Shown: positions 11,641 through 25,681 of the stretch, in pieces | Position numbering within the stretch: position 1 is the first letter of the stretch | How the letters are laid out: each line of letters begins with the position of its first letter | NCBI GenBank assembly: GCA_964384825.1 | Contig: CAYLMM010000031.1 | Location: 1 to 32,831, forward strand | Reading direction: 5' to 3' | Length of the DNA: 32,831 bases | Source of the DNA: an uncultured Fibrobacteraceae bacterium | GTDB lineage: Bacteria; Krumholzibacteriota; Krumholzibacteriia; LZORAL124-64-63 | Position numbers and translations under genes: made by a program | Notes under the pieces: generated by a model | What the model saw: the letters and a program-made list of their open reading frames with translations, nothing else | The model's database searches: none | What the model was told of the DNA's origin: nothing

Positions 11641-11671
11641 GAAAAAGGGCCCGGCGCGCGGCGCCGGGCCC
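11641..11671 (-). terminator. Rho-independent terminator of pepT.
   Basis: On the minus strand, GGGCCCGGCGC-cgc-GCGCCGGGCCC is followed by TTTTTCATG. Confidence 0.7.
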
Positions 11672-11687
11672 GGGGGACGGATTCGGA

Positions 11688-12947
11688 TCAGGCTTCCTTC
11701 TCGGCCCAGACCGCGATGGTTTGCAGGACGGTGTCGGTGGCCAGCACCATGTCCTTGACGCAGACCCACTCGCCGAGGCTGTGGAAGCTCTGCTCGCCGG
11801 TGAAGATGTTCGGCGTGGGCAGGCCGCGGGCCGAGAGGTTCGACCCGTCGGTGCCGCCGCGGATCGATCCGAGATGGGGATCCATGCCGGCGCGGCGGAT
11901 GGCCTCGGTGGCGTAGGCGATCGCCCGGGGCTCCTTCTCCAGGTCGTACTTCATGTTCCGGTAGTATTCCTTGATCTCGACCTCGACCTTCGATCCGGGC
12001 CAGGCGGCGCTGGCGGCCTCGGCCATCTCGCGGATCCGGTCGGCCTTGGGGCCCAGCTCGGCGGCGTCGAAATCGCGGATCAGCAGCGTGACCACGACCT
12101 GGCTGGTGTTGCCCTCGATGCCGATCGGATGGATGTAGCCCTCCATCCCTTCGGTGGTCTCCGGCGCGCCTTCCCGCGGCAGCGAGGCCACGAATTCCGC
12201 GGCGACCTTCACCGCGGGGACCATCTTGTCCTTGGCGTATCCGGGATGGATGTCGCGGCCGGTGAAGGTCACGACGGCGCTGTCGGCGCAGAAGGTCTCG
12301 TTCTCGATCTCGCCGCGCTTGCCGCCGTCCATCGTGTAGGCCACCGTCGCGCCGAACTTCTCGATGTCGAAGTACTTCACGCCCGCGCCGACTTCCTCGT
12401 CGGGGGTGAACGCGACCTTCACGGTGCCGTGCTTGAAATCGGGGTTCTCGCCGATCAGGGTCAGGGCCTCCATGATCTCGGCGATGCCGGCCTTGTCGTC
12501 GGCCCCCAGCAGGGTGGTGCCGTCGCTGGTGATGATCGTCTCGCCGACGCACTCGTTCAGGTACGGGTTGTCCTGCACGGTGATCGTGGGACCGTTGGGC
12601 AGGGGGATGTCGCCGCCCTGGTAGTTCTCGTGGAAGGTCGGCTTGACGTTCTCGCCGGAGACCTCGGGGTAGGTGTCCATGTGCGAGATGAACCCGACGG
12701 CCGGGACCTTGGCCAGGGCCGGGTCGTTGGCGGGCAGGGTGGCGGTCACGTAGCCGTACTTGTCCATCGCCGCGTCGGCGAGGCCGAGCTCCTTCAGCTC
12801 CTCGACCAGGACCCGGGCCAGATCGAGCTGGCAGGCGGACGAGGGGTAGGAATCGGATCCCTCGACGGCCTGCGTGTTGATGCGGGCGTATTTCACGAAG
12901 CGCTCGACAAGGGTCGGGAACTTGGTGTCCGGCTTGCGTTCGAGCAT
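11688..12947 (-). CDS. pepT: Peptidase T (tripeptide aminopeptidase, M20B family).
   Basis: The gene starts at the ATG at 12947 (MLERKPDTKFPTLVERFVKYARINTQ) with an AAAGGAGA ribosome-binding site. It contains M20 metal-binding motifs: GFISHMDT, GADDKAGIAEIMEAL and the terminal GTDGSNLS block. It is 419 aa, the typical PepT length. The track's 481-aa version has a spurious N-terminal extension. Confidence 0.9.
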   Translation of the reverse strand: MLERKPDTKFPTLVERFVKYARINTQAVEGSDSYPSSACQLDLARVLVEELKELGLADAAMDKYGYVTATLPANDPALAKVPAVGFISHMDTYPEVSGENVKPTFHENYQGGDIPLPNGPTITVQDNPYLNECVGETIITSDGTTLLGADDKAGIAEIMEALTLIGENPDFKHGTVKVAFTPDEEVGAGVKYFDIEKFGATVAYTMDGGKRGEIENETFCADSAVVTFTGRDIHPGYAKDKMVPAVKVAAEFVASLPREGAPETTEGMEGYIHPIGIEGNTSQVVVTLLIRDFDAAELGPKADRIREMAEAASAAWPGSKVEVEIKEYYRNMKYDLEKEPRAIAYATEAIRRAGMDPHLGSIRGGTDGSNLSARGLPTPNIFTGEQSFHSLGEWVCVKDMVLATDTVLQTIAVWAEKEA

Positions 12948-13208
12948 GGAAATCTCCTTTTTCTTCACGCAGGTCGATGGCGGGGGCCTGCATTCAAATA
13001 GAACCGGCGTCGCGCGGGACGAGGCCGGGATGGGACCGGTCGGGCCGACTGGCCGCCGACAAATGTATCCTTTCGGAGCGGAGGTAGCAAGAAGCCTCCC
13101 CGGCAACTTTTCTTGTCTGGGTCGGTCGGCCATGCTAATTTTCGGTGATCGGGCCGCGGCGACGCGGCCTTTTCCTGCCTACACCCGCGCGCATTTATGG
13201 AGGTATCC

Positions 13209-15230
13209 ATGGACGTCAGTGGCAACGCCAACCGACTGCCGGAGAATGCGTACCGCAAGCTGAATCCCGGTGAGGAATTCGTGCCCATCGTTCCGGCCGC
13301 CAAGATCGTGCCGGAGCTGACGCCGTACGCCCTCTTCTGGGGTCTGTTCTACGCGGTGCTCTTTTCCGCGGCCTGCGCCTACCTGGGCCTGAAGATCGGA
13401 CAGGTCTTCGAGGCGGCCATCCCGATCACGATCCTGGCCATCGGTCTGAGCAGCTCCCTGAAGAAGAAGGACGCGCTGCAGCAGAACGTGATGATCCAGT
13501 CGATCGGCTCGGCCTCGGGCGTGGTCGTGGCCGGCGCGATCTTCACGCTGCCGGGCATCTACATCCTCGGTTTGGCCGATCAGACCAACTTCATGCAGAT
13601 GGCCCTGGCGTCGCTGCTCGGCGGCATCATCGGCATCCTGTTCCTGATTCCGTTCCGGCGCTACTTCGTCAAGGATATGCACGGGGAGTTCCCCTTCCCC
13701 GAGGCCACGGCCTCGACCGAGGTCCTGATGGCCGGCGAGTCGGGCGGAGGCCAGGCGAGCATCCTGCTGAAGTCGGGCTTCATCGCCGCGGGCTACCAGC
13801 TGCTCTCGCAGACCTTCGGCCTGTGGCGCGAGACCTTCGTCACCACCGCCTTCAAGTGGGGCGAGACGGTGTCGCAGAAGGTGCGGCTGGAATTCCACAT
13901 GATGACCGAGGCGGCCATCATCGGCCTGGGCTACATCATCGGTCTGCGCTACGCGCTGGTCATCGCCTGCGGCTCGTTCCTGAGCTGGTTCGTGATGGTG
14001 CCGATGGTCGGCATCCTGGGCAAGGGCGTGAACATCGGCGACCAGGTCTACAGGATCGAGGCCCTCGACGCCCTGAGCACTCCGGACATCTTCGCCAACT
14101 TCGTCCGTCCGGTCGGCATCGGCGCGATCGCCATGGCCGGCCTGATCGGCGTCTGGAAGAGCCGCAGCATCATCGTCGGGGCCTTCAAGCTGGCCGCCGG
14201 CGGCGCCAAGACCGAGGGCGCCGGCGACGGCGCCGCGCAGAAGGTCGAGCGCACCCAGCGCGACCTGTCGATGAACCTCGTCACCTCGCTGATCATCATC
14301 AGCCTCGCGGCGATCTTCGCCTTCTTCCTGTTCCTGGTGCCCGGCGTGAACTTCGGCCAGTCGGTGACCGGCCTGCTGATCGTCGCCGGCATCGCCTTCC
14401 TGTTCGCGACCGTCGCGGCCCGGGCCATCGCAATCGTCGGCACCAACCCGGTTTCGGGCATGACCCTGATGACCCTGATCATCAGTTCGGTCATCCTGAA
14501 GGCCGTCGGCGTCGAGGGCGAGAGCGGCATCGTGGCCGCCCTGCTGATCGGCGGCGTGGTCTGCACCGCGCTGAGCATGAGCGGCGGCTTCGTCAGCGAC
14601 CAGAAGATCGGCTACTGGCTGGGCACCACGCCGGCCACCCAGCAGAAGTGGAAGTTCCTGGGCACCTTCGTCTCGGCGATCTCGGTGACCCTGGTGATCA
14701 TGCTGCTGGACAAGACCTACGGCTTCGCCGAGGGCGGGCTGCCCGCCCCCCAGGCCAACGCCATGGCCGCGGTGATCGAGCCCCTGATGACCGGACAGCC
14801 CGCTCCGTGGCTGCTCTACATGGCCGGCATCTTCATGGCCCTGATCCTCGAGTGGACCGGTCTGCCGGCCCTGGCCTTCGCGCTGGGCATGTACCTGCCG
14901 ATGTCGGTCAACACCCCGGTGCTGGCCGGCGGCCTGATCGCCTACTTCGTGACCAAGGGCGGATCGAAGGAGGAGCAGGGCAAGCGGCGCGAGAAGGGCA
15001 CCCTGATGGCCAGCGGCTTCGTGGCCGGCGGCGCCATCATGGGCGTCATCTCCGCCATCGTGCGGTTCGCGGGCATCAGCGCCACCGGCGAGTCGAACTG
15101 GAGCGTCGAGCACGCTCTGGGCATGACCCACTGGATCGAGGCCAATCCCCTGTCCGCCATCGTGACCCTGGTCTGCTTCATCGCGCTGGGTTACTACCTC
15201 TACAAGGGCGCACGCAACGCGGCGGCCTGA
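13209..15230 (+). CDS. OPT-family oligopeptide transporter.
   Basis: The product has about 16 predicted transmembrane segments and OPT-superfamily length and composition. The ATG at 13209 has a GGAGGT ribosome-binding site 6 nt upstream. An alternative ATG lies 4 codons earlier, at 13197. The gene is divergent from pepT, which suggests a peptide-uptake module. Confidence 0.85.
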   Translation: MDVSGNANRLPENAYRKLNPGEEFVPIVPAAKIVPELTPYALFWGLFYAVLFSAACAYLGLKIGQVFEAAIPITILAIGLSSSLKKKDALQQNVMIQSIGSASGVVVAGAIFTLPGIYILGLADQTNFMQMALASLLGGIIGILFLIPFRRYFVKDMHGEFPFPEATASTEVLMAGESGGGQASILLKSGFIAAGYQLLSQTFGLWRETFVTTAFKWGETVSQKVRLEFHMMTEAAIIGLGYIIGLRYALVIACGSFLSWFVMVPMVGILGKGVNIGDQVYRIEALDALSTPDIFANFVRPVGIGAIAMAGLIGVWKSRSIIVGAFKLAAGGAKTEGAGDGAAQKVERTQRDLSMNLVTSLIIISLAAIFAFFLFLVPGVNFGQSVTGLLIVAGIAFLFATVAARAIAIVGTNPVSGMTLMTLIISSVILKAVGVEGESGIVAALLIGGVVCTALSMSGGFVSDQKIGYWLGTTPATQQKWKFLGTFVSAISVTLVIMLLDKTYGFAEGGLPAPQANAMAAVIEPLMTGQPAPWLLYMAGIFMALILEWTGLPALAFALGMYLPMSVNTPVLAGGLIAYFVTKGGSKEEQGKRREKGTLMASGFVAGGAIMGVISAIVRFAGISATGESNWSVEHALGMTHWIEANPLSAIVTLVCFIALGYYLYKGARNAAA

Positions 15231-15244
15231 TGATTTGGGGGCCC

Positions 15245-15400
15245 CGGAGGGGGCCGGACGAGTGATGGTCGTCTTGTGAGGCCGGCGGGCCCGCACTTCC
15301 TGTGCGGGCCCGCCTTGGCGTTCGGGCGGCTTCGGCATCCTGCCTTCGCTCGCCCTCTCGACACCTCACAAGACGACCATCACCCGTCCGGCCCCCAGGC
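15245..15400. repeat. A 33-bp near-perfect terminal inverted repeat flanking an 82-bp core that has its own 13-bp perfect hairpin. It may be a MITE-like element, a REP-like element or a structured RNA.
   Basis: The left arm (15249-15281) reads gggggccggacgagtgatggtcgtcttgtgagg. The right arm (15364-15396) reads cctcacaagacgaccatcacccgtccggccccc. There are 32 matches out of 33. The inner hairpin is GGCGGGCCCGCAC-ttcct-GTGCGGGCCCGCC (15284-15314). Confidence 0.5.
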
Positions 15401-15441: not shown

Positions 15442-17109
15442 TCACTCGGAATCCCGGAGGACGCCCCACAAACCCCAAGCCCCGTCGCTCCGCCCGTAAT
15501 GCCCGTCGCTAGGCGGCATGGCCCGCCCGTCGGTGGCCGTCGCGATCCAGCGCACGATCAGGTAGTCGCGGCCTTCGAGCAGATCCGCGGGCACGGTGAC
15601 CGCCGGGGTCGCGGAGCGGTCGACCAGCAACCGCAGGGGGCGATGATCGGCGTCGAGGGCTTCGATCCGCCAGGTCAGGCCGCGGATCAGGCCGCTCTCG
15701 GCCGGGAGGTCGCGGGCCTTGATCAGCAGTCCCGCGGGAACAGCGCGCGCGTCGGAGAGCCCCTCGACGGGCGAGACCCTGGTCAGGGCCCAGCGCAGGG
15801 TCTTGTCGCGGCGGCGTTTCAGGACGTCGACCAGCAGCGGGGCCGCGGCGGGGTCGTGGTAGCGCCCGCTGGCGACGGCGGCTTCGATCATCTGGTCGGT
15901 CATCCGCGCCAGAACCGTCCCGGCCCAGTAGATGTCGGCGGCGCGGGCGTCGCAGAGGGCGTCGTTGACGTAGTTGGCGCGCCAGGCGGCGGGATCGTAG
16001 ATGTCGGCTTCGAACATCCCGATCTCGCGGTTGGCCGGCCCTTCGAGACGTTCGTAGGGCCGCACCCACAGCCCGAGGGTGGGCATCGAGGTCAGGATCT
16101 CGCGGAAGTCGATGTCGTAGGCGAAGCCGATCCTTTTTTCGTGACGGGCGGCCCAGTAGCCGCCGAGGCAGCCGTCGAAATCCACCAGGTAGTGGCGCAG
16201 GAAGCGGCGGCCGTCCTGCTCGATGTAGAGGTCGAGGGTGTTGTCGAATTTCTGGTCGACGTGGTTCAGCCAGGCGCCGAAGACCCGCAATCCGCGCAGC
16301 GACCGGCGGCGCTGGTGGGGGATGCGGTCGTTCGGATCGTCGTCGCGCACGCCGGCGTAGTCGTAGCCTCCGCGCGGCGATCCTTCGAGAAAGCGGCTGA
16401 CCAGGGCGCGGTACCCGCCCTCCTCGGTGCGGCAGGGCAGCAGGGTCATCAGCCGGTCGATGTCGTTGCGGTCCAGGGGGCGCTTGCGATCCTTCTCCTT
16501 CACGGTCGCGCCCGCGGCGATCTCCAACTCGCCGGGCCGGAAATAGACGATGCGGTCGTCGGGCACGAAGTAGCCCAGGGCCCACAGCAGGCGGGCGGCC
16601 ACCGCGCCGGCGGCGGTCGCGGTCACCGGTTCGCCGCGCTTGTCGAACTTGCAGATGTACCGCGCGCCGCGGGAATCCTCGAAATTGAAGCCCGGATTGC
16701 GGCCGCCGATCTTCAGGCCGGTCACCTTCCAGGGCTTGAAGGCCTCGGGCCCGGGATCGTCGCCGCCGGGCCCGGCCGCGACGTCCCGGGGCGAGAGCGC
16801 GCCGATGCGGTTGGTGTACCACGACGAATCCGGCACCCGGCCCAGGCGGTTGACGTCCTCGGCGGGCATCGCCCGGGTCGGCGAGAGGCCGGTGCGGGCC
16901 TGCCGCAGCACGAAGTTCTCGATGTGATGGCTCAGCCGGCGGAACTCGTTCTCGGACGGTTCCGGGATGTCGGCGTCGTCGGCGATGCGCGTGATCACCG
17001 TTCCGGGAACGAAGCGCGGCGGCGCCGAAGAGCATCCCGGCAGGGATGCCGCCGCGAGGGCGGCCAGGGCCGCGCCGAGCAGCACCAGGATGTCGCGGCG
17101 GGCGTTCAT
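15442..17109 (-). CDS. Lipoprotein with a protein-kinase-like catalytic signature (an atypical secreted kinase fold).
   Basis: The gene starts at the ATG at 17109 (MNARRDILVLLGAALAALAAASLPGCSS, a signal peptide plus lipobox). An AGGAGG ribosome-binding site lies 6 nt upstream. FGAWLNHVDQKFDNTLD contains an exact HxDxKxxN catalytic loop. It is followed 20 aa later by YLVDFDGCLGG, a DFG-like motif. Earlier, YICKFDKRGEPV is a possible VAIK-like Lys. The first 437 aa of track ORF 15442..18420 is Arg-rich junk, a shadow of the Omp85 gene. Confidence 0.75.
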   Translation of the reverse strand: MNARRDILVLLGAALAALAAASLPGCSSAPPRFVPGTVITRIADDADIPEPSENEFRRLSHHIENFVLRQARTGLSPTRAMPAEDVNRLGRVPDSSWYTNRIGALSPRDVAAGPGGDDPGPEAFKPWKVTGLKIGGRNPGFNFEDSRGARYICKFDKRGEPVTATAAGAVAARLLWALGYFVPDDRIVYFRPGELEIAAGATVKEKDRKRPLDRNDIDRLMTLLPCRTEEGGYRALVSRFLEGSPRGGYDYAGVRDDDPNDRIPHQRRRSLRGLRVFGAWLNHVDQKFDNTLDLYIEQDGRRFLRHYLVDFDGCLGGYWAARHEKRIGFAYDIDFREILTSMPTLGLWVRPYERLEGPANREIGMFEADIYDPAAWRANYVNDALCDARAADIYWAGTVLARMTDQMIEAAVASGRYHDPAAAPLLVDVLKRRRDKTLRWALTRVSPVEGLSDARAVPAGLLIKARDLPAESGLIRGLTWRIEALDADHRPLRLLVDRSATPAVTVPADLLEGRDYLIVRWIATATDGRAMPPSDGHYGRSDGAWGLWGVLRDSE

Positions 17110-18485
17110 CGCAACCTCCTGGATCTGAGGTCGAAGATCGAGCCGGTGCCGATGTAGAACTGGGCGCCCTCGTCGCTCCAGGCGCCCTGGACCGACACCG
17201 AGGTCGGCCCGAGGCGCACGACCATCGCCAGTCCCATCGAGCGCTTCATCTCGTCGAGGTGCAGCGCGTCCCATTCGGGAACGGCGGCGCCCCATTCGGT
17301 GAAGATCCGACCCTGGATGTAGTTGCACAGGGGGTAGCGGTACTCGAGGGTCGCGAGCAGGATGTCCGCGCCGGTGAAGCGGTCGCGGTCGAAGCCGCGG
17401 CCGAGCCGGCGCCCGCCGAGGCGGCAGAATTCGGTGAACGGGATCTCGGTCGGGTCGTTGCGGCTCATGCCCTCGGCGTAGACGCGCAGCGCCAGGCTGC
17501 GGTTCTCGCGGTAGATGTCGGCGAAGAGTTGGGCCTCGGCGCTGTAATGGCGGTAGGCGTAGTTCCCGACCGAGCGGGCGTCGTTGGTGCCTCCGATCAG
17601 ACGCAGCAGGCCGCCCCGGGTGGAGAATTCGCCGTCGTTGCGGCGGTCGAACTCGATCCCCGCCTCGAGCCCCACGTAGTCGCTCTGTTCGGCTTTGGCG
17701 TAGAGATCGGGGAAGCCCTCGGAGATCCGGGGGCCGTGGCCGGGATCCTTCAGGGTGATCTCGCGCGCCCAGGCCGAACCGAACACCCGCACGCGCGGAT
17801 GGATCCGCCACCCGAGCGTGGTTTCGAGCAGCGAACGGCGTCTGCCGGTGTCGTGGCGCACGTCCGGCGCGTCCATCCCCAGGCCGTAGAACGGGACGTC
17901 GTCCTTGCGCTCGGAGCGGGCCACGACGTCGAAGTCGAACGGGCCCGAGGCGGTCTCCATCTCGAAGATCAGCAGGTTGTCCTCGGAGGTCAGGTAGCTG
18001 CCGCCGGCGGTGAAGTCGATGCCGGTGCCGAGCCAGTCCCGGGATTTCGCGCGCAGGCCGGCCACCGACCAGCCGAAGCCCGTCTCCCAGCCGAAGCTGG
18101 CCGCGATCTTCGTGTCCAGCGACGAGATGTTCCAGACCATCAGCTTCTTCAGCTTCCCGACCAGGTCGTAGGTGTCCTGGAGGCCGACCAGGTAGACGAT
18201 CGGCCGAAAAACGGTCTCGATTGCGATGTAGGGGACGAAGCCCAGTCCCGAGACGATGTCGCGCTGCCTGCCGCCGGCCCGGCCGAGGGGTTCGGCGGTG
18301 CCGCGCAACAGCTCGGGTCGGCCCGGCACCGGAGTCCGCACCGCGGCGGAATCCGGCCCCGCGCCGGCGGCTTCGATGGCGGATCCGGCGGCGGCCGAGT
18401 CGGCGGCGGCCGCCGCGCAAAGGGCGTCCGCCGGGGAAAGAGCGGCCGCGAACAGGACGGCCAGGACCAGCGCCGCGCGCGTCAT
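17106..18485 (-). CDS. Omp85-family (bacterial surface antigen D15 / TpsB / TamA-like) outer-membrane beta-barrel protein.
   Basis: The gene starts at the ATG at 18485 (MTRAALVLAVLFAAALSPADA, a signal peptide) with a GGGAGGA ribosome-binding site. The C-terminal barrel signature reads LGGRRLGRGFDRDRFTGADILLATLEYRYPL...GRIFTEWGAAV...MGLAMVVRLGPTSVSVQGAW, of the LGG..LRGF...G...E.R.P type. The stop overlaps the downstream ATG as ATGA. Confidence 0.7.
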   Translation of the reverse strand: MTRAALVLAVLFAAALSPADALCAAAAADSAAAGSAIEAAGAGPDSAAVRTPVPGRPELLRGTAEPLGRAGGRQRDIVSGLGFVPYIAIETVFRPIVYLVGLQDTYDLVGKLKKLMVWNISSLDTKIAASFGWETGFGWSVAGLRAKSRDWLGTGIDFTAGGSYLTSEDNLLIFEMETASGPFDFDVVARSERKDDVPFYGLGMDAPDVRHDTGRRRSLLETTLGWRIHPRVRVFGSAWAREITLKDPGHGPRISEGFPDLYAKAEQSDYVGLEAGIEFDRRNDGEFSTRGGLLRLIGGTNDARSVGNYAYRHYSAEAQLFADIYRENRSLALRVYAEGMSRNDPTEIPFTEFCRLGGRRLGRGFDRDRFTGADILLATLEYRYPLCNYIQGRIFTEWGAAVPEWDALHLDEMKRSMGLAMVVRLGPTSVSVQGAWSDEGAQFYIGTGSIFDLRSRRLR

Positions 18486-19840
18486 GCGGGATCCTCCCGC
18501 GTCAGGCGGCGGTGGCGGCGGGCGATGTCCACGACCAGCGCCAGCCACACGACGACCAGCGCCACGTTGGCCAGCGCGAACTGCCGGGTGGCGAAGCCGA
18601 AGCTCGTTCCCAGCAGCACCACGCCGGCCGATGCCACGTCGCCGGTGCGGACGAAGAAGGTGTCGATCGCCTGCTTGGCCTTGTACTTCGCCGCCCGGCT
18701 GGTGGGCAGGAACAAGGTCTGCCGCACCGTGTTCTGCAGCGAGTAGTCGGTGGAGTTCTCCATGATCTTGGCGATGCGGATGACGCCCAGCACGGCGCTG
18801 AAGGCCATCAGGGCGTAGCCGCCGATGGCGATCAGCGGCAGCACGAACAGGGCCTTGCGCACGCCGGCGTACTTCAGGATCCGCGAGACGGCGAACAGCT
18901 GCAGCGCCGCGCTCAGCAGGTTGACCCAGGTGAAGAACCCGGAGTAGAAGCCGCCGATCATCTGCTCCGCGTCGCCGCCGGAGGCCAGCGCCACCTCGGT
19001 GATCTTCGCCCCGAGGATGTACTCGCCGTTGGTGTTGACCACGTTGGTCACCAGCAGCATCAGGGCGATCGACAGCAGGTAGCGGTCGCGCAGGACCATC
19101 GTGAAACCCGAGGCGTCGTCGTCCGCGGCGGGGGAGCCGTCGGCGCCGGTCCCGGCCGTCTCGGCCCTCGGCGGCGCGGCTTCCCGCCGTTCCAGGGCCG
19201 CGCGCTCCCGCCGGCTCACGACGTTGATCAGCAGCATGCAGACGCCCAGCAGGCCGGCGGCGATCAGCATCATCTCGTAGGCGCCGATCCCGACCGCGAA
19301 CAGGCGGCCGGCGACCACCGCGCCGAGGATCGCGCCGAGCGAGCTGCCGAAGGCCACCAAAGGGAACAGGCGCTTGCCCTGCTCCTGGGTGTAGATGTCG
19401 TTGGCGAAGGACCAGGCCTGGGCGATGATCATCAGGCTGAAGATCCCGACCCAGAGGAAGAAGGCCACGCCCAGATAGGGAACGCCGGCCCGGGCCAGGA
19501 GGTAGAAGAGCGCCAGGTTGCCCATGAAGAACAGCGTGACCCGGTTGATCAGCCGGACGCGGTCGATGCGGTTGACCAGGGCGCTGTAGAGCGGAACGAT
19601 CCCGATCAGCAGCAGGGCCTGGCCGGCCGCGGCGTAGCTCTTCAGCTCGGCGCCGCCCCCCATCAGGATCAACGGTTCGCGGACGGTCTTGAGGATGTAG
19701 TAGGCGGTCAGCAGCAGGAACAGGTTCAGCATCAGCAGCAGGGCCGTGCCGGCTTCACCCGGGCGGACGGGCGTGAAAACCGAAAGCAGGCGGGATGCCC
19801 AGGGGGCACCGTTCGGCGTCGGGGCGTTCGATCGCTCCAT
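18482..19840 (-). CDS. Inner-membrane transporter resembling the TLC/NTT ATP:ADP antiporter (AAA) family. It could alternatively be an MFS-like transporter.
   Basis: The 452-aa product has about 11-12 transmembrane segments. Its first helix, ALLLMLNLFLLLTAYYILKTVREPLIL, matches the TLC-family hallmark (LL..F..Y.ILR/K....L). A GGAGGA ribosome-binding site lies 6 nt upstream of the ATG at 19840. The stop overlaps the next ATG as ATGA. Confidence 0.6.
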   Translation of the reverse strand: MERSNAPTPNGAPWASRLLSVFTPVRPGEAGTALLLMLNLFLLLTAYYILKTVREPLILMGGGAELKSYAAAGQALLLIGIVPLYSALVNRIDRVRLINRVTLFFMGNLALFYLLARAGVPYLGVAFFLWVGIFSLMIIAQAWSFANDIYTQEQGKRLFPLVAFGSSLGAILGAVVAGRLFAVGIGAYEMMLIAAGLLGVCMLLINVVSRRERAALERREAAPPRAETAGTGADGSPAADDDASGFTMVLRDRYLLSIALMLLVTNVVNTNGEYILGAKITEVALASGGDAEQMIGGFYSGFFTWVNLLSAALQLFAVSRILKYAGVRKALFVLPLIAIGGYALMAFSAVLGVIRIAKIMENSTDYSLQNTVRQTLFLPTSRAAKYKAKQAIDTFFVRTGDVASAGVVLLGTSFGFATRQFALANVALVVVWLALVVDIARRHRRLTREDPA

Positions 19841-20028
19841 GAAAGTCCTCCGTACGGGTTCCCAGCCCGTTTCAACCTAGCCATTCCGGCCCGGATTGCC
19901 TACAACTTTCCGCTGGCCGTTGGCGCGGGCGGGATCGGTGTGCTACCGTCGGGCCGACATCGTTGACGGCGCCGGCCGGCGGGAATTCCGAGCCGGGAAG
20001 CGCAACATCTTCCGCACCGAGGATCGTG

Positions 20029-21129
20029 ATGAAACAGGTATGGATCACCAGGGCGGGCGAGCCCGAGACGATGGCCGTGCGCGAGGCTCCCGATCCCGTC
20101 CCCGGCCGGGGCGAGGTCCGGATCCGCGTGCATGCCGCGGGCGTGAACTTCGCCGACGTCATGATGCGCTTGGGGATCTATCCCGACGCCCCCGCCCTGC
20201 CCGCGGTCCCCGGCTACGAGGCCGCTGGCGTGATCGACGCGGTCGGCGAGGGCGTCGACGACGGCCTGGTCGGAACCGGCGCGGTCGCCTTCCGGGCCTT
20301 CGGCTGCTACGCGGACGTGATCTGCGTGGACCGTCGCTTCGCCTTCCCGCTGCCCGAAGGAATGCCGGCCGCGGTCGGCGCCGGGCTGATCGTCAACTAC
20401 GTCACCGCCTGGCAGATGGTCGAGGCGATGGCTCCGGTGCGCGAGGGCATGACCGTGCTGATCCACGGCGCCGCCGGCGGGGTGGGCCTGGCCGCGGTCC
20501 AGCTCTGCCGCCGCCGCGGGGCCCGGATCCTGGGCTCGGCCTCGCCCGCCAAGCACGCCTTCCTGCGCGAGGCCGGGGTCGAGGCCGTCTTCGATTCCCG
20601 CCGCCGGCACTATGCGTCGTCGGTGCTCGCGGCCACCGGCGGGCTCGGCTGCGACGTGGTGCTCGAACCCCGCAACGGCCGCTGGATCGGCGAGAGCTAC
20701 GACTGCCTGGGCGCCACCGGGCGCCTGATCCTTTTCGGCTTCTCGGACGCCGCCGTCGGCAAGCGCGGCTCGAAGCTGGCCGCCCTGCGCACCCTGGCCT
20801 CGGTGCCGTGGCTGCGCCTGAACCCGATGCGGCTGATCAACGACAACCGTGGCGTGATGGGGGTCAACGTGGGCCGGCTCTGGGACCGGCGCGAGATGGT
20901 CGCCGGCTGGATCGCCGAGATCCTCGCCGGAGTCGAGCAGGGCTGGATCGCGCCGCGCATCGATCGCGGCTTCAGGCTCGAGGACGCCGCGAAGGCCCAT
21001 CACTTCCTGCAGGACAGGCGCAACGTCGGCAAGGTCGTGCTGCTGACCGGGGCGGGGCTCGCCGCCGGACCGGGTTGCCGGATGGACGGGGACGGAAACG
21101 GGAACGGAAACGGGGGGGAAGAGGCGTGA
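20029..21129 (+). CDS. NADPH:quinone oxidoreductase / zinc-type alcohol dehydrogenase-like (MDR superfamily).
   Basis: Motifs include GEVRIRVHAAGVNFADV, PAVPGYEAAGVIDAVG and the Rossmann motif VLIHGAAGGVGLAAVQL. The ATG at 20029 has a GAGGA ribosome-binding site 5 nt upstream. The C-terminal tail is low-complexity (GDGNGNGNGGEEA). Confidence 0.85.
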   Translation: MKQVWITRAGEPETMAVREAPDPVPGRGEVRIRVHAAGVNFADVMMRLGIYPDAPALPAVPGYEAAGVIDAVGEGVDDGLVGTGAVAFRAFGCYADVICVDRRFAFPLPEGMPAAVGAGLIVNYVTAWQMVEAMAPVREGMTVLIHGAAGGVGLAAVQLCRRRGARILGSASPAKHAFLREAGVEAVFDSRRRHYASSVLAATGGLGCDVVLEPRNGRWIGESYDCLGATGRLILFGFSDAAVGKRGSKLAALRTLASVPWLRLNPMRLINDNRGVMGVNVGRLWDRREMVAGWIAEILAGVEQGWIAPRIDRGFRLEDAAKAHHFLQDRRNVGKVVLLTGAGLAAGPGCRMDGDGNGNGNGGEEA

Positions 21130-21866
21130 AGATCTCGGCCGTGCTGATAACCCGCGACGCCGCAGCTCATCTGGAAGGCTGCCTGGCCTCGCTCGATTTC
21201 GCCGACGAGATCGTGGTCCTGGACCAGAACAGCTCCGACGGCACCGTCGCGATCGCCGAGAGGATGGGAGCGAAGGTCCACCAGGGAGTCTGGCGCGGCT
21301 TCGGGCCCACCAAGCGCGCGGCGGTCGATCTGGCCCGCAACCGCTGGATCCTGAGCATCGACGCCGACGAGGAGGTCACGCCCGAGCTGAGGGAGGCGAT
21401 CCTGGCCCTGCCCGCAGCCCCGCCCGAAGCCGCGTTCGCGATCAACCGCCTCTCGCGTTTTTTGGGCCGATGGATGCGGCATTGCGGCTGGCATCCCGAC
21501 TGGGTGGTCCGCCTCTTCGACCGCGAACGGGCCGGATTCGACGAGAAGATGGTCCACGAATCCGTGCGGACCGAGGGGTCGGTCGGCAGGCTCGACGGCC
21601 TGCTGCGGCATTACACCTACGACAACCTCGAACAGTACCTGGACAAGGTGAACCGATACACGACCCTGTCGGCCGAGGCCGCCTACGACGCCGGCCGTCG
21701 CGTCACCCCGATCGGCGCTCTTGTGCGGGGCAAGCTGACCTTCGTGCGCTTCTTCGTGCTGCGCCGCGGTTTCCTCGACGGTTGGCACGGGCTGCTGCTG
21801 AGCCTCTGCTCGGCCTGGGGCGTCTTCGTGAAATACGTGAAGATCTGGTGGAAGGGGCGCTCGTGA
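21126..21866 (+). CDS. Family-2 glycosyltransferase (KdtX/WaaE-like, LPS core or cell-envelope glycosylation). GTG start.
   Basis: The N-terminus VKISAVLITRDAAAHLEGCLASL is a typical GT2 start. A DxD region is present (ILSIDADEEV). The GTG overlaps the upstream stop as GTGA, and a GGAAGAGG ribosome-binding site is present. The track shows this gene fused to a 400-aa Arg-rich shadow ORF. Confidence 0.8.
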   Translation: MKISAVLITRDAAAHLEGCLASLDFADEIVVLDQNSSDGTVAIAERMGAKVHQGVWRGFGPTKRAAVDLARNRWILSIDADEEVTPELREAILALPAAPPEAAFAINRLSRFLGRWMRHCGWHPDWVVRLFDRERAGFDEKMVHESVRTEGSVGRLDGLLRHYTYDNLEQYLDKVNRYTTLSAEAAYDAGRRVTPIGALVRGKLTFVRFFVLRRGFLDGWHGLLLSLCSAWGVFVKYVKIWWKGRS

Positions 21867-21925
21867 ATCGACCGGCGAGCGCCGGCGCGATGCGCGGAAG
21901 ATCGCAATTATCCGGAGGATGGAGA

Positions 21926-23065
21926 ATGCGCGCGAGAATCCTGTTTCTGATCTGCTGCTGCCTGGCCGTCGCGGCCGTCGTTCCCGCCGCCGCGCGTCCG
22001 CCGCAGGTTCCCGCCGAGGCGGCCGCGGTCCAGGAACAGCTGCTGGGCGACGTGCGCGCCCGCATCGCCGACGCCCGCCGGCTGAACGGGCATAAATACG
22101 CTCCGGCGGCCTATAGCGAGGCCCGGACGGCTCTGGCCGCGGCCGAAGAGGCCGTCGCCGCCGATTTCGCGGCCGCCCGCGACGGAGCCTGCGCCGCCGA
22201 GATCCGCGCCGCCCGGATCGCCGCCTCCGCCTTCTACGCCAAGGCCGCATTCATCGAGGAACTGCGCGACTACCGCTACGGTTGGGAAGAGGCCGTGGAC
22301 CGCTACGAATCCCTGGTGAACGACGTGGCCGTGGTTTCCGGCATCCGGCTCGATCCCTTCCTGGGCGGATCGGCCGCCGCCGGCGCCGTCGTGGATTCGC
22401 TGACCGCCCGGCGGGGCCGCACCCGCGCCCTGCTCGATTCCCTCTCGCGGGAGAACGAGATGCTGCGCCTGCGGACGACGACCGAAGGGGCGGTCCAGGA
22501 CACGGTGATCGCGGGCCTGCGGGCCGAGTTGGGGGAACTGCGCAGCCGCCTCTGGGAGATGGAGCTGCGCGCCGGCGTGGCCGAGGCCGATCGATCGGCC
22601 GCCGAGGAGGTCCTGCGGCGCAACCGGCTGCGCGAGGAGCAGGTCGCCGGGCTGGTGGGATTGTTCACGCCCGACGAGGGGGAGATCCTGCTGACGCCCG
22701 AGGGGGACGTGCGCATCAGGCTGACGGGTCTGGGTTTCGCGGTGGGCAGCGCCTGGCTGGGATCGAAACAGCAGCCCCTGCTGGCCAAGCTGCACGAGGC
22801 GGTCAAGCGCTTCCCGGGCGCTCCGCTGCGGGTCGAGGGCCACACCGACGACACCGGGCCGCGCGACGTGAACCTCGATCTGTCGCTGCGCCGGGCCGCG
22901 GCGGTGGCCAAGGATCTGGCCGGGAAACTGGGCGTCGATCCGGCCGGCATCGCGACCCGGGGGCTGGGACCGGATCGTCCGACGGCCACCAACGCCACGG
23001 CCGAGGGCCGGGCCCTGAACCGGCGGATCGAGGTCGTGATCCTGGCGGCGGACAAGGTCGAATAG
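21926..23065 (+). CDS. OmpA-family protein with an N-terminal signal peptide, a long coiled-coil region and a C-terminal OmpA/MotB peptidoglycan-binding domain.
   Basis: The gene starts at the ATG at 21926 (MRARILFLICCCLAVAAVVPAAA) with a GGAGGA ribosome-binding site 6 nt upstream. The C-terminus reads LRVEGHTDDTGPRDVNLDLSLRRAAAVAKDL...NRRIEVVI. Confidence 0.85.
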   Translation: MRARILFLICCCLAVAAVVPAAARPPQVPAEAAAVQEQLLGDVRARIADARRLNGHKYAPAAYSEARTALAAAEEAVAADFAAARDGACAAEIRAARIAASAFYAKAAFIEELRDYRYGWEEAVDRYESLVNDVAVVSGIRLDPFLGGSAAAGAVVDSLTARRGRTRALLDSLSRENEMLRLRTTTEGAVQDTVIAGLRAELGELRSRLWEMELRAGVAEADRSAAEEVLRRNRLREEQVAGLVGLFTPDEGEILLTPEGDVRIRLTGLGFAVGSAWLGSKQQPLLAKLHEAVKRFPGAPLRVEGHTDDTGPRDVNLDLSLRRAAAVAKDLAGKLGVDPAGIATRGLGPDRPTATNATAEGRALNRRIEVVILAADKVE

Positions 23066-23072
23066 CCGCGGG

Positions 23073-23660
23073 TCAGGGCGCCCGCCGCGGAGGTTCGGGG
23101 CTCTCCTTGAGGATGTCGGCCACGGCCTTGAAGTCTTCTGTCCGGGCGACCCTCAGGATCTCGAACATGATCATCTCGGCGCTCATCACCTGGACGCCGG
23201 CGTCGCGCATGCGCGCGATCCCCAGCACGCGGTCCGATGTCCGGCGCGACGAGACCGCGTCGGCGGCCAGGATCACCTGGTACCCTTCCCTTTTCAGGTC
23301 GAGGGCCGTCTGATAGACGCAGATGTGGGATTCGATCCCGCACAGCACGACCTGGTCGCGCCGCGACCCCTCCAGCCGCGACATGAAGCCCGGATCCCCG
23401 GCGCAGGAGAAGTGGATCTTCTCGACGACCTCGCGGCCGCGATGCAGTGCGGCCAGCTCGGGCACCGTGCGGCCCAGCTTGGCGGGGTAGTGCTCGGTGA
23501 CCGTGACCGGCAGGTCCAGGCGGTCGCAGAAGCGCATCAGGCGCGAGCAGTTCGCAATCACGCAGGCCATGCCGTGGATGTGGCGGCGGAAGGGCTCCTG
23601 CATGTCGATCACCGTCAGCAGGACGCGGGATTTCTCGATCCGGTCGGCGATGGCGGCCAT
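23073..23660 (-). CDS. Isochorismatase-family cysteine hydrolase.
   Basis: The 195-aa product contains LLTVIDMQEPF and the catalytic Cys motif VVLCGIESHICV. A GAGGAGAA ribosome-binding site is present. Confidence 0.9.
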   Translation of the reverse strand: MAAIADRIEKSRVLLTVIDMQEPFRRHIHGMACVIANCSRLMRFCDRLDLPVTVTEHYPAKLGRTVPELAALHRGREVVEKIHFSCAGDPGFMSRLEGSRRDQVVLCGIESHICVYQTALDLKREGYQVILAADAVSSRRTSDRVLGIARMRDAGVQVMSAEMIMFEILRVARTEDFKAVADILKESPEPPRRAP

Positions 23661-23691
23661 GGTTCTCCTCGGGATGCGCCGGTCTCCGGAC

Positions 23692-24891
23692 CTACTGCCG
23701 GCGCGGCGCCCGGTAGCTGCCGCAGGGGTCGACGGTCTCGGCGTAGGGGCCGCGCCAGCCCTGCTCGAAGAAGGCGATCAGCCGCGAGGCCCCGGCCACC
23801 CCGTCCCCGAACAGGCTCACGTTGCGCGACTGGTGGAAGTAGTCCTCGGCCCAGTTGGCCGTTCCGATCCAGAACCGGCCGCGGTCGGCCACCAGATACT
23901 TGGCGTGCTCGACCCGGGCGTAGGGCACGAATCCCCCCGACCACTGCGGGATGTTCGTGAAGCGGATCTCGACGTTCGGCAGCACCGCCAGGCTCTGGAT
24001 CCACGGCAGCATATAACTGCGTTTCGACCAGTTGGCCAGGATGATCCGCACCTGCACCCCGCGGGCGGCGGCCCGGCGCAGGGCGTTGTCCAGGGTGAAG
24101 TAGACGGTGTTGTCGCGGTTGCCGGGATTGTAGCTCAGCAACTGCAGGCGCAGGGTCTCCCGCGCGCCGTCGATCATCTCGACCAGCAGGGGCTCGTCGT
24201 GCGGGACGCCCGGCGGCAGGGCGGCGGGCGGACTGGCCGCCAGGCGGAGGCCGATCGAATCCCCGTCGGCGACCGCCAGGCGGAACGGGCCGGACGCGAT
24301 TTCGGCCGCCGGCGGCTCTTCGCCTCCGGCCAGCGCCCAGTCGGTCGCGAAGACAGCGGCCAGCGCGGCGGTCAGGCCGGGATGGCCCACGCGCGCGCCC
24401 AGTTCGCGGATCTGGACCAGCGCGCGCCAGTCCCAGTTCTGGCTGCCGACGTAGAACTCGCGGCCGTCGACCAGGAAGAATTTGGCGTGCTGGACCCCGC
24501 CCCAGAGCGCGCGGGCGTCCAGGGCGCGGGCTTCGGCTCCGGGCAGCGCCCCGATGCGGTCGTAGACGTCGGAGTAGGTGCGCAGGAATCCCTTGTCGCC
24601 GATCGCCCGGATCCTCACCCCGCGCTCCGCGGCGGCGGCCAGGGCTTCGATCACCGCGTCCAGCGCGTCTTCGGGGTCGTCGGGATCCTGGCTGAAGTAG
24701 AAACTCTCGATGTCGATCGATTCGGTCGCGCCGCGGATCATCTCGAGCCAGACACCGGGGGCGTCGGGCATCGAATCCAGACCGTAGACGGTTTCTGCGG
24801 GGACGCTCTCGACAGGAGTCAATTGCGCCGTCGCCGTCGTGGCCAGCAGCGCCAGCAGGACCAAGGTCATCGCGGCAGGGTTCGGTCGCAT
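23692..24891 (-). CDS. Secreted phospholipase D superfamily protein with two HKD motifs.
   Basis: The gene starts at the ATG at 24891 (MRPNPAAMTLVLLALLATTATAQ, a signal peptide) with a GGAGGT ribosome-binding site 6 nt upstream. The two HKD motifs are HAKFFLVDGREFYVGSQNW and HAKYLVADRGRFWIGTANW. It lies 32 nt upstream of the isochorismatase gene, so an operon is likely. Confidence 0.85.
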   Translation of the reverse strand: MRPNPAAMTLVLLALLATTATAQLTPVESVPAETVYGLDSMPDAPGVWLEMIRGATESIDIESFYFSQDPDDPEDALDAVIEALAAAAERGVRIRAIGDKGFLRTYSDVYDRIGALPGAEARALDARALWGGVQHAKFFLVDGREFYVGSQNWDWRALVQIRELGARVGHPGLTAALAAVFATDWALAGGEEPPAAEIASGPFRLAVADGDSIGLRLAASPPAALPPGVPHDEPLLVEMIDGARETLRLQLLSYNPGNRDNTVYFTLDNALRRAAARGVQVRIILANWSKRSYMLPWIQSLAVLPNVEIRFTNIPQWSGGFVPYARVEHAKYLVADRGRFWIGTANWAEDYFHQSRNVSLFGDGVAGASRLIAFFEQGWRGPYAETVDPCGSYRAPRRQ

Positions 24892-25282
24892 TCCATACCT
24901 CCATGAGAGTATTTCGAGTGCCACGATAGCACGTTGCCGGCCTTGATCCAATGCATTGTGTTGAAACGTTTTCCGGGATCGCCTGCGACTTGGGCGCAAC
25001 CGATTCCGGCGCGTGACCGGCCGGCCTCTATTTAATCTTGCCGAAGGAGCGTAATTTTCAGATCGTACGCTGGCTCGAACGCTCGGACCGCGGTGGCTGG
25101 CGGGGGTGCGATCCATCCCCGGCAGGAGCTTCCCCGCCGCTGTCGCATGAGCGGGAAGAACAACGATTCGTTCAACCAACCCGGGTCCGGCGGGCGAATC
25201 CGGGCGCAGGAAGCGCGCCTCGGGCCGGCAGGATCCACGAGGGGGCGGTACTTCACCGACACTCTTGTCAAGGAGGTGGGCC

Positions 25283-25681
25283 ATGGGCGCCACCGGATTC
25301 GGTCCTCACCTGATGCTGGATCTCAACGGCTGCGACGTTGCGCGGCTGAACGATCTGGACCTCTGCTTCAAGGTCCTGAACGAGCTGCCCGATCACATCG
25401 GGATGACCAAGATCACCCAACCCCACGTGTTCCGGTACAGCGGGGTTGTGCCCGAGGATGAAGGCATCACCGGCGTGGTGATCATCGCGGAGAGCCACAT
25501 CTCCTTGCACACCTTTCCCCGGAAGAAATACGCCTTCCTGGACGTTTTCTCGTGCAAGCCGTTCGACATCGCACTGGGACGGGATTATCTGATCGAGGCC
25601 TTCGCCTCGCAGGATCCCGAGGTTTTCGTCGTCGAACGGGGAGCCAAGTTCCGCCGATCCGAGATCAGGGCTTCCGCCTGA
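25283..25681 (+). CDS. speH: S-adenosylmethionine decarboxylase proenzyme (small prokaryotic class 1 form).
   Basis: The 132-aa product contains GVVIIAESHISLHTFP, the pyruvoyl-forming ES cleavage site. An AAGGAGGTG ribosome-binding site lies upstream. Confidence 0.9.
   Translation: MGATGFGPHLMLDLNGCDVARLNDLDLCFKVLNELPDHIGMTKITQPHVFRYSGVVPEDEGITGVVIIAESHISLHTFPRKKYAFLDVFSCKPFDIALGRDYLIEAFASQDPEVFVVERGAKFRRSEIRASA

Follow-up and report, generated by a model that had tools for sequence, protein, structure and literature searches.

The operon

The window, a stretch of 32,831 nucleotides from an uncultured Fibrobacteraceae bacterium (contig CAYLMM010000031.1), carries on its minus strand a gene for a lipoprotein of 555 amino acids (aa) that resembles protein kinases. 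What is new here is a large, unannotated family of exported proteins in which the catalytic constellation of kinases is intact, and whose genes are tied to an Omp85 gene and repeatedly linked to nucleotide transporters (NTTs) and phosphatases. In the window the kinase-like gene is the last of three genes, which are given below together with the parts of the lipoprotein. All residue numbers refer to the 555-aa protein.

18482..19840, minus strand: TLC/NTT-family transporter gene, 452 aa, first in the operon
17106..18485, minus strand: gene for an outer-membrane barrel of the Omp85 family, 459 aa including the signal peptide, with ATGA coupling at either end
15442..17109, minus strand: kinase-like lipoprotein gene, 555 aa, from open reading frame and translation; stop codon at 15442-15444
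17032..17109, minus strand: signal peptide and lipobox MNARRDILVLLGAALAALAAASLPGC, read from the sequence; Cys26 predicted to be lipidated
17032-17043, minus strand: LPGC lipobox, residues 23-26
16735..17031, minus strand: N-terminal extension, residues 27-125, with the family motif A83..N87..V92-P-x-S95-x-W97..R101 (VPDSSWYTNR), from conservation; predicted local distance difference test score (pLDDT) about 90-98
16390..16734, minus strand: predicted kinase N-lobe, residues 126-240, with Gly-rich loop and the β3 strand that carries K154
16687-16713, minus strand: Gly-rich loop KIGGRNPGF, residues 133-141
16642-16659, minus strand: predicted β3 strand YICKFD, residues 151-156, contains K154
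15763..16389, minus strand: predicted kinase C-lobe, residues 241-449, from invariant residues and an element order that fits kinase topology
16294-16347, minus strand: family signature RDDDPNDRIPHQRRRSLR, residues 255-272
16240-16263, minus strand: putative catalytic loop HVDQKFDN, residues 283-290
16174-16182, minus strand: DFD, residues 310-312
15445..15762, minus strand: predicted C-terminal β-sandwich domain, Ig/FN3-like, residues 450-555

An earlier note, made from the letters of this DNA, had described a 555-aa lipoprotein with the lipobox LPGC, and both the open reading frame and its translation agree with that description. An AGGAGG lies 7 nt before the ATG of the kinase-like gene, and this ATG overlaps the stop codon of the Omp85 gene as ATGA. 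The likeliest start of the Omp85 gene (MTRAAL..., which matches public gene calls) forms an overlap of this ATGA type with the stop codon of the TLC-like gene. Since start and stop codons overlap at both junctions, the TLC-like, Omp85 and kinase-like genes are translationally coupled. The note had made the kinase-like gene the terminal gene of a coupled operon with a nucleotide transporter. The coupling holds, but the Omp85 gene in the middle had been overlooked, so that the operon consists of three genes instead of two.

The frame of the kinase-like gene stays open for 437 more codons 5' of the ATG, across the Omp85 gene in another frame than that gene's own, and mechanical lists of open reading frames give a 992-aa frame for 15442-18420 on the minus strand. 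This longer frame is an artefact of high GC: where translation truly starts is fixed by the AGGAGG, by the signal peptide and by the homologues. Promoter and terminator scans of the operon returned nothing above the shuffled expectation, and an Rfam scan of the operon region nothing above gathering.

Predicted fold and catalytic residues

Structure prediction with AlphaFold2 (AF2), based on an alignment of 55 sequences, gave a model of the lipoprotein with a pLDDT of 94.4 and a predicted template modelling score (pTM) of 0.92. A Foldseek search with this model puts the Golgi casein kinase/Fam20 (E 3.7e-4) and CtkA at the top. The figures given for structural relatives are 14.5 for CtkA, 12.2 and 10.9 for PI4KIIα, 12.0, 11.2 and 10.6 for Fam20 of Hydra, zebrafish and human, 11.2, 10.4 and 9.6 for HipA-like kinases, 10.2 each for Golgi casein kinase and CotH, 9.9 for actin-fragmin kinase and 9.7 for MavQ. 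Structure prediction thus returns the kind of fold that the earlier note had proposed from short motifs.

The predicted order of elements agrees with kinase topology. The model is bilobal, with an N-lobe made of a β-sheet and a helix and a helical C-lobe. Its N-lobe runs from strand 127-133 through the Gly-rich loop to strand 140-144, strand 150-154, which ends in K154, and helix 163-177; the Gly-rich K133-x-x-G136-x-x-x-G140-F sits between strands β1 and β2. In the C-lobe, helix 274-281, the equivalent of αE, is followed by the D-x-[KR]-x-x-N loop (D285..N290), and a hairpin (291-308, with strands 291-298 and 301-308) precedes D310-F-D, which would supply the metal-binding Asp of a DFG motif. 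From this topology we would expect the motif residues to cluster around a pocket. Judged by the model, it is almost certain that the lipoprotein has a protein-kinase-like (PKL) fold.

The motifs themselves are where the earlier note had read them. HVDQKFDN at residues 283-290 reproduces the pattern HxDxKxxN, which is expected 4.7e-4 times in a protein of the same composition and occurs a single time in the window's six-frame translation of 65,658 residues. For this pattern together with a DF[GD] 10-30 aa downstream the expectation is about 5e-6. D310 lies exactly 20 residues past N290, and the candidate ATP-anchoring Lys that had been seen in YICKFDKRG is K154.

Homologues keep these residues. 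Among 244 near-full-length family representatives, to which all conservation percentages refer, D285 is conserved in 97.5%, N290 in 96%, D310 in 99.6%, F311 in 89% and K154 in 91%. Position 287 is K in 70% and R in 21% (K/R together 91%), and the Gly-rich motif is conserved in 93-96% (G136 and G140 in 94-96%). At position 312, 64% of the representatives have G and 32% have D; hence, most members carry a literal DFG, of which the DFD in the window is a variant. The family also has conserved positions of its own. D261, H265, R269, R272, D392, W395, R433 and G179 are fully invariant (100%), and the N-terminal motif VPDSSW[FY]xNR is conserved, with N87, S95 and W97 invariant or nearly so. Both the invariant set and the N-terminal motif are foreign to canonical kinases, and it is only conjecture that the latter docks to the Omp85 partner.

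At the level of sequence, no search led to a kinase. For the lipoprotein, a Pfam scan found no family at E <= 1 (Pkinase, HipA, Fam20C, CotH and PI3_PI4_kinase included), an NCBIfam scan gave no match, and searches of PDB sequences with phmmer, a full-length profile and a kinase-core profile found no kinase. The Hanks-type Pkinase profiles (PF00069/PF07714) matched neither the query nor any of the 55 members scanned, and the same is true of the Fam20, CotH and PI3_PI4_kinase profiles, so that the likeness to these families is at fold level only. Three of the 55 members have faint HipA matches, two to HipA_2 (PF20613) at E 0.016 and one to HipA_C (PF07804) at 0.087. When the family alignment was compared by hhalign with HipA of E. 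coli, a single sequence, the probability was 0.2%, which is uninformative. We also considered kinship with ATP-grasp enzymes and rejected it, as we regard the matches of the αC region (16580-16642, residues about 156-198) to pyruvate carboxylase 4qsl (E 0.11-0.55) as noise.

The earlier note had likened the protein to Ser/Thr/Tyr kinases. That comparison survives for the motif; it does not extend to membership among the Hanks-type kinases, given the lack of a Pfam Pkinase match, and the protein stands nearer to the atypical CtkA, HipA, PI4KII and Fam20. Because every sequence-profile test failed, both for the CtkA/HipA/PI4KII/Fam20/CotH group and for Hanks kinases, we file the lipoprotein as a new family within the known PKL superfamily.

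Distribution and export of the family

The family is large, unannotated and spread over several diderm phyla. A word-index search found 133 homologues, all of them annotated as hypothetical. A hidden Markov model search of 1.84 billion cluster representatives returned 4,893 at E <= 1e-3 and 1,696 at E <= 1e-30; what is counted here are clusters at 50% identity (about 4,900). In a scan of one genome per GTDB species, at least 567 species carry a member. The nearest relatives come from metagenome-assembled genomes (MAGs) labelled Krumholzibacteria, 'Fibrobacteraceae' or Gemmatimonadota, remoter ones from Myxococcota, Acidobacteriota, Calditrichia, Ignavibacteria, Zixibacteria, Latescibacterota, Eisenbacteria, Bdellovibrionales and Bradymonadales. 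A few members have a C-terminal extension in common (residues 550-1158 of P0191 and 550-742 of P0238), and in these two extensions we found no Pfam domain, no second kinase copy and no functional clue.

Of the 244 representatives, 237 begin with a hydrophobic signal, and 76 of these have a lipobox-like Cys. The rest of the family, about two thirds, has ordinary signal peptides and no lipobox Cys. Hence, export is a trait of the family and lipid anchoring a trait of clades. In the window the signal peptide ends in a lipobox Cys, as it does in bacterial lipoproteins; the Pro at -2 is unusual, and Cys26 aligns with the canonical lipoboxes LAGC, AAGC and VIGC of the closest clades. We count the Ig-like C-terminal domain, which is typical of envelope proteins, in favour of export. 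Going by the sequence, an extracytoplasmic location of the protein is very likely, and it is probably Sec-exported and lipid-anchored at the outer membrane, where it would face the periplasm rather than the surface. Export by the Tat system was rejected: RR is present in the query, but there is no conserved Tat motif across the family.

The Omp85 partner

Omp85 is the most conserved partner of the kinase-like gene. We surveyed the neighbourhoods of 84 related loci, 78 of which have enough upstream sequence, and in 70 of these 78 the gene immediately upstream, in the same orientation, encodes an Omp85 protein. The paired loci span Krumholzibacteria-like MAGs, Gemmatimonadota, Myxococcota, Acidobacteriota, Calditrichia, Zixibacteria and Latescibacterota. 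The 4-nt overlap between the two genes recurs in L001, L002 and L004. In the window, the product of the middle gene matches PF01103 above the gathering threshold, and it combines a predicted 16-stranded barrel with the loop-6 RG[FY] of Omp85 proteins (here RGF). Its AF2 model, built from an alignment of 6 homologues, is of low confidence, with a pLDDT < 50 for residues 1-123; its barrel matches best BamA, TamA, CdiB, FhaC and Sam50.

Some genomes have two Omp85-kinase modules, in tandem or divergent (L024, L043, L083). The two pairs in L043 lie head to head, and L002 and L014 are two such modules on one contig.

Transporters and phosphatases

The label of nucleotide transporter that the earlier note had given to the neighbouring gene is right about the TLC/NTT family, of which the protein is a distant member. 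It scores 58.6 bits against PF03219, above the cut-off of 21, and 60.2 bits against TIGR00769, far below the cut-off of 387.2. It also matches the solved 'ADP,ATP carrier protein 1' 9j3n (E 4.7e-7), with which it shares the motifs WxFAN(D/E)I and K-x-K-x-K-x-AID. By sequence it is best taken as a distant but genuine NTT and as a true homologue of the solved ADP/ATP carriers.

Across the survey, a TLC or TLC-HEAT gene lies at most 7 kb from the kinase-like gene in 33 of 84 loci. There are at least two gene orders. One of them, which is that of the window, is TLC>Omp85>kinase; another is Omp85>kinase>(Metallophos)>TLC>TLC-HEAT>cNBD. A linkage that persists when genes are rearranged is good evidence that they are functionally coupled. 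By our own estimate from typical genome sizes, a rare gene family would fall into a 14-kb window by chance in about 1% of cases.

Secreted or lipoprotein phosphoesterases of the Metallophos family occur in 14 loci, often directly downstream of the kinase-like gene, and PAP2 phosphatases in 6. Phosphatase genes lie directly 3' of the kinase-like gene in L016 (8638-9906), L033 (8666-9916), L055 (8602-9939), L037 (8455-9456), L046 (8596-9579) and L070 (8624-9625), and a TLC gene often comes next. In the window neither a Metallophos nor a PAP2 gene adjoins the operon. Long TLC-HEAT fusion genes are found in 20 loci, with small cNMP-binding genes beside them in 12 (for example, L002 502-2760; L033 11308-14175 and 14222-14671; L075 10032-13246; L021 6613-12103). 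The arrangement of NTT-HEAT with cNBD has been described, with no function assigned, by Major et al. 2017 (PMC5381601). We left out of the module the genes for Hanks kinases and σ54 two-component systems that occur close to some loci, as they are probably Myxococcota genome background.

Surroundings of the operon

An OPT oligopeptide transporter gene and an M20 peptidase gene adjoin the operon (11688-15230 of the window). Both also lie a few kb from the module in L001, which is 56% identical (11652-15114). They are missing from distant loci and hence look like lineage-local synteny, not like a part of the module.

Between the OPT gene and the kinase-like gene, which are convergent, lies a 33-nt inverted repeat with 97% complementary arms (15249-15281 and 15364-15396). 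Between the arms lies a perfect GC-rich hairpin of 13 bp (15284-15296 / 15302-15314). The inverted repeat occurs nowhere else in the window and lacks a T-run, and its Rfam matches are sub-threshold generic hairpin models only. It is probably a bidirectional terminator, though one with an unusually long outer stem.

Upstream of the operon and divergent from it (19963-25305) are a Zn-dependent dehydrogenase-like gene, an OmpA-family gene (21470-23065) and a PLD-like gene with two HKD motifs (23695-25305). In L001, GT2 and OmpA genes lie upstream of the TLC gene. The region upstream of the operon may be an envelope-related neighbourhood.

Discussion

On balance we favour the view that the lipoprotein is an exported, outer-membrane-associated phosphotransferase of the atypical-kinase type that works with its Omp85 partner. 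That it is an active phosphotransferase at all we consider likely. The PKL core, flanked by the N-terminal extension with its conserved motif and by the Ig/FN3-like domain, would act in the periplasm at the outer membrane. The nucleotide would be bound by K154 and the Gly-rich loop and Mg2+ by N290 and D310, with D285 as the putative catalytic base. The Omp85 barrel, the other half of a paired two-gene module, would anchor the lipoprotein, present its substrate or translocate it.

In this genome, as in many others, a TLC/NTT antiporter joins the module. Its most economical role would be to exchange ATP of the cytoplasm against ADP of the periplasm, which would provide the phosphate donor. From established properties of NTTs, which are exchangers, a high cytoplasmic ATP/ADP ratio would drive ATP outward and ADP inward. 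A kinase that works outside the cytoplasm must be given a phosphate donor, presumably ATP, and the co-encoded NTT is the obvious candidate to bring it; we propose this delivery, and the direction of transport that it implies, only tentatively. In other genomes, a secreted metallophosphoesterase or PAP2 phosphatase would reverse or complement the reaction; secreted phosphatases as neighbours fit a reversible mark. Candidate substrates are a lipid or glycan of the outer membrane or an envelope protein. Since the structural relatives include protein, lipid and sugar kinases, we leave the class of substrate wide. A lipid phosphate is hinted at by the PAP2 neighbours, an anionic substrate by the cluster of invariant Arg and His residues. 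It seems somewhat unlikely that all parts come together in one full ATP-driven system of covalent modification in the periplasm, with an NTT that exports ATP in exchange for ADP, an Omp85-docked kinase, reversing phosphatases and NTT-HEAT/cNBD proteins that regulate the supply.

Several observations weigh against an active periplasmic phosphotransferase. Searches of PDB, Pfam and NCBIfam give no sequence-level link to any kinase family. H283, at 77%, is the least conserved of the motif residues, which is a caveat on the 'HxD'; K154 is replaced by S in 6.5% of representatives; and no conserved αC glutamate is evident in the family alignments. PKL folds also perform non-kinase chemistry, and an Omp85 partner could mean export to the surface instead of action in the periplasm. 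The periplasm is generally regarded as lacking ATP, and we know of no bacterium in which nucleotide export by an NTT has been shown. No TLC gene lies within 7 kb in 51 of the 84 loci, so that supply of ATP by an adjacent NTT cannot be general. Finally, all characterised NTTs are importers (PMC5381601).

One could also argue that the protein is a secreted kinase exposed on the surface, with Omp85 as its two-partner-secretion transporter and with extracellular, prey or host molecules as targets. The obligate pairing with Omp85 (70 of 78 loci) would fit, as would a barrel whose model is roughly as similar to the TpsB proteins CdiB and FhaC as to BamA and TamA. Many carriers come from predatory or saprophytic lineages (Myxococcota, Bdellovibrionales, Bradymonadales). 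The best structural relatives of the lipoprotein include secreted kinases, and CtkA, Fam20C and CotH act outside the producing cytoplasm. However, ATP is diluted outside the cell, about two thirds of the family have no lipobox, and the N-terminus of the Omp85 partner is modelled with low confidence, its POTRA unconfirmed; we therefore think a surface kinase unlikely. An Omp85-linked enzyme can also stay in the periplasm, as is reported for PlpD (PMC11116518). Alternatively, the genes could serve the scavenging of nucleotides, with an Omp85-like barrel, the kinase-fold protein as a periplasmic binder or processor of nucleotides, Metallophos/PAP2 nucleotidases and the NTT as an importer. The genes that this requires are all linked, periplasmic Metallophos enzymes include nucleotidases (the UshA family), and import is what all the characterised NTTs do. 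Yet Omp85 barrels are not known as nucleotide pores, and in most loci the kinase-Omp85 pair stands without a transporter. Scavenging also leaves aside that the catalytic base D285 is near-invariant, and not just the Mg/nucleotide ligands N290 and D310, which argues against a protein that only binds as well as against an inert one. We regard scavenging as quite unlikely.

The remaining alternatives concern the chemistry of the protein. SelO and SidJ run other reactions on the PKL fold, and the invariant cluster of the family (D258-x-N-D261...H265..R268-R269..R272, D392, W395, R433) is missing from canonical kinases, which would fit AMPylation of the SelO type or another nucleotide-dependent transfer onto an envelope component. 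Given that the classical D-x-K/R-x-x-N and DFG constellation is intact and in canonical order, and that the structural neighbours are bona fide kinases, such chemistry is improbable. Much the same can be said of a catalytically inert accessory lipoprotein, a pseudokinase that would serve the Omp85 machine as BamB-E serve BamA. The strict pairing with Omp85, the lipoprotein nature and a periplasm thought to lack ATP would all suit it, but a pseudokinase has usually lost one of three residues, the catalytic Asp, the Asn and the DFG Asp, all of which are kept here in 96-99.6% of about 240 diverse representatives, and the repeated linkage to nucleotide transporters and phosphatases speaks against it too; this we hold to be highly improbable. 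Kinase-like motifs that arose by chance in an unrelated fold can be dismissed: the joint expectation is about 5e-6, the motifs are conserved and the predicted fold is kinase-like.

If the family is indeed a set of active phosphotransferases, it would represent a new pathway of envelope modification, and a few recombinant proteins would suffice to test directly for ATP-dependent chemistry in the periplasm. Envelope processes are explained without ATP, and the periplasm is generally taken to be free of it; the secreted kinases known so far come mostly from secretory pathways of eukaryotes, with a few more among bacterial effectors. The recurrent linkage to NTTs and secreted phosphatases provides a concrete, testable model for ATP-dependent chemistry in the envelope. 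An ATP-export system, if real, would be the first function for the NTTs of free-living bacteria, which are widespread and to which no role has been assigned (PMC5381601). Even if the lipoprotein is merely a binding protein or a pseudokinase, it would still be a new class of conserved partner for Omp85 proteins.

Comparison with known systems

A search of the literature for a periplasmic kinase linked to Omp85 or NTTs, or for NTT-fed periplasmic phosphorylation or ATP export, found nothing relevant; its coverage was incomplete, and an earlier description may exist. One of the close relatives by fold, the cell-translocating Ser/Thr kinase CtkA of H. pylori (JHP0940, PDB 3AKJ), shares about 10% identity with the lipoprotein and no sequence-profile match, and its solved chain of 275 residues is much shorter than the 555 aa of the lipoprotein. 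CtkA is not known to have a Sec signal, lipobox, Ig-like domain, or Omp85 or NTT neighbours. Its activity is reported to depend on a type IV secretion system (PMC5536186). The lipoprotein reaches no HipA model, and the hhalign comparison with E. coli HipA found nothing. HipA proteins (HipA/HipT) are cytoplasmic toxins paired with HipB/HipS antitoxins, whereas the lipoprotein is exported and paired with Omp85. It also differs from the lipid kinases PI4K type IIα and Legionella MavQ, which are eukaryotic enzymes or effectors of the cytosolic face, and it has no match to PI3_PI4_kinase. A lipid as the substrate of the lipoprotein is pure conjecture.

The Fam20 kinases of the secretory pathway (the Golgi casein kinase Fam20C and the xylosylkinase Fam20B) and the spore-coat kinase CotH are like the lipoprotein in that they leave the cytoplasm for a compartment that must have its own supply of nucleotides. 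The lipoprotein differs from them by its lack of a Pfam match, its diderm context, the signature DDPND...H..RR..R, its predicted lipid anchor and its Omp85 partner. With the NTTs of free-living bacteria treated by Major et al. 2017, the operon shares a TLC-family first gene, and the related loci share the NTT-HEAT and cNBD arrangement; that paper mentions no linkage to a kinase-like protein or Omp85 (PMC5381601). The patatin-Omp85 protein PlpD and the TpsB/TpsA systems have in common with the operon an Omp85 barrel dedicated to an adjacent enzyme or passenger. In contrast to these, no TPS domain was detected here, and the partner of the barrel is a separate lipoprotein with a predicted kinase fold.

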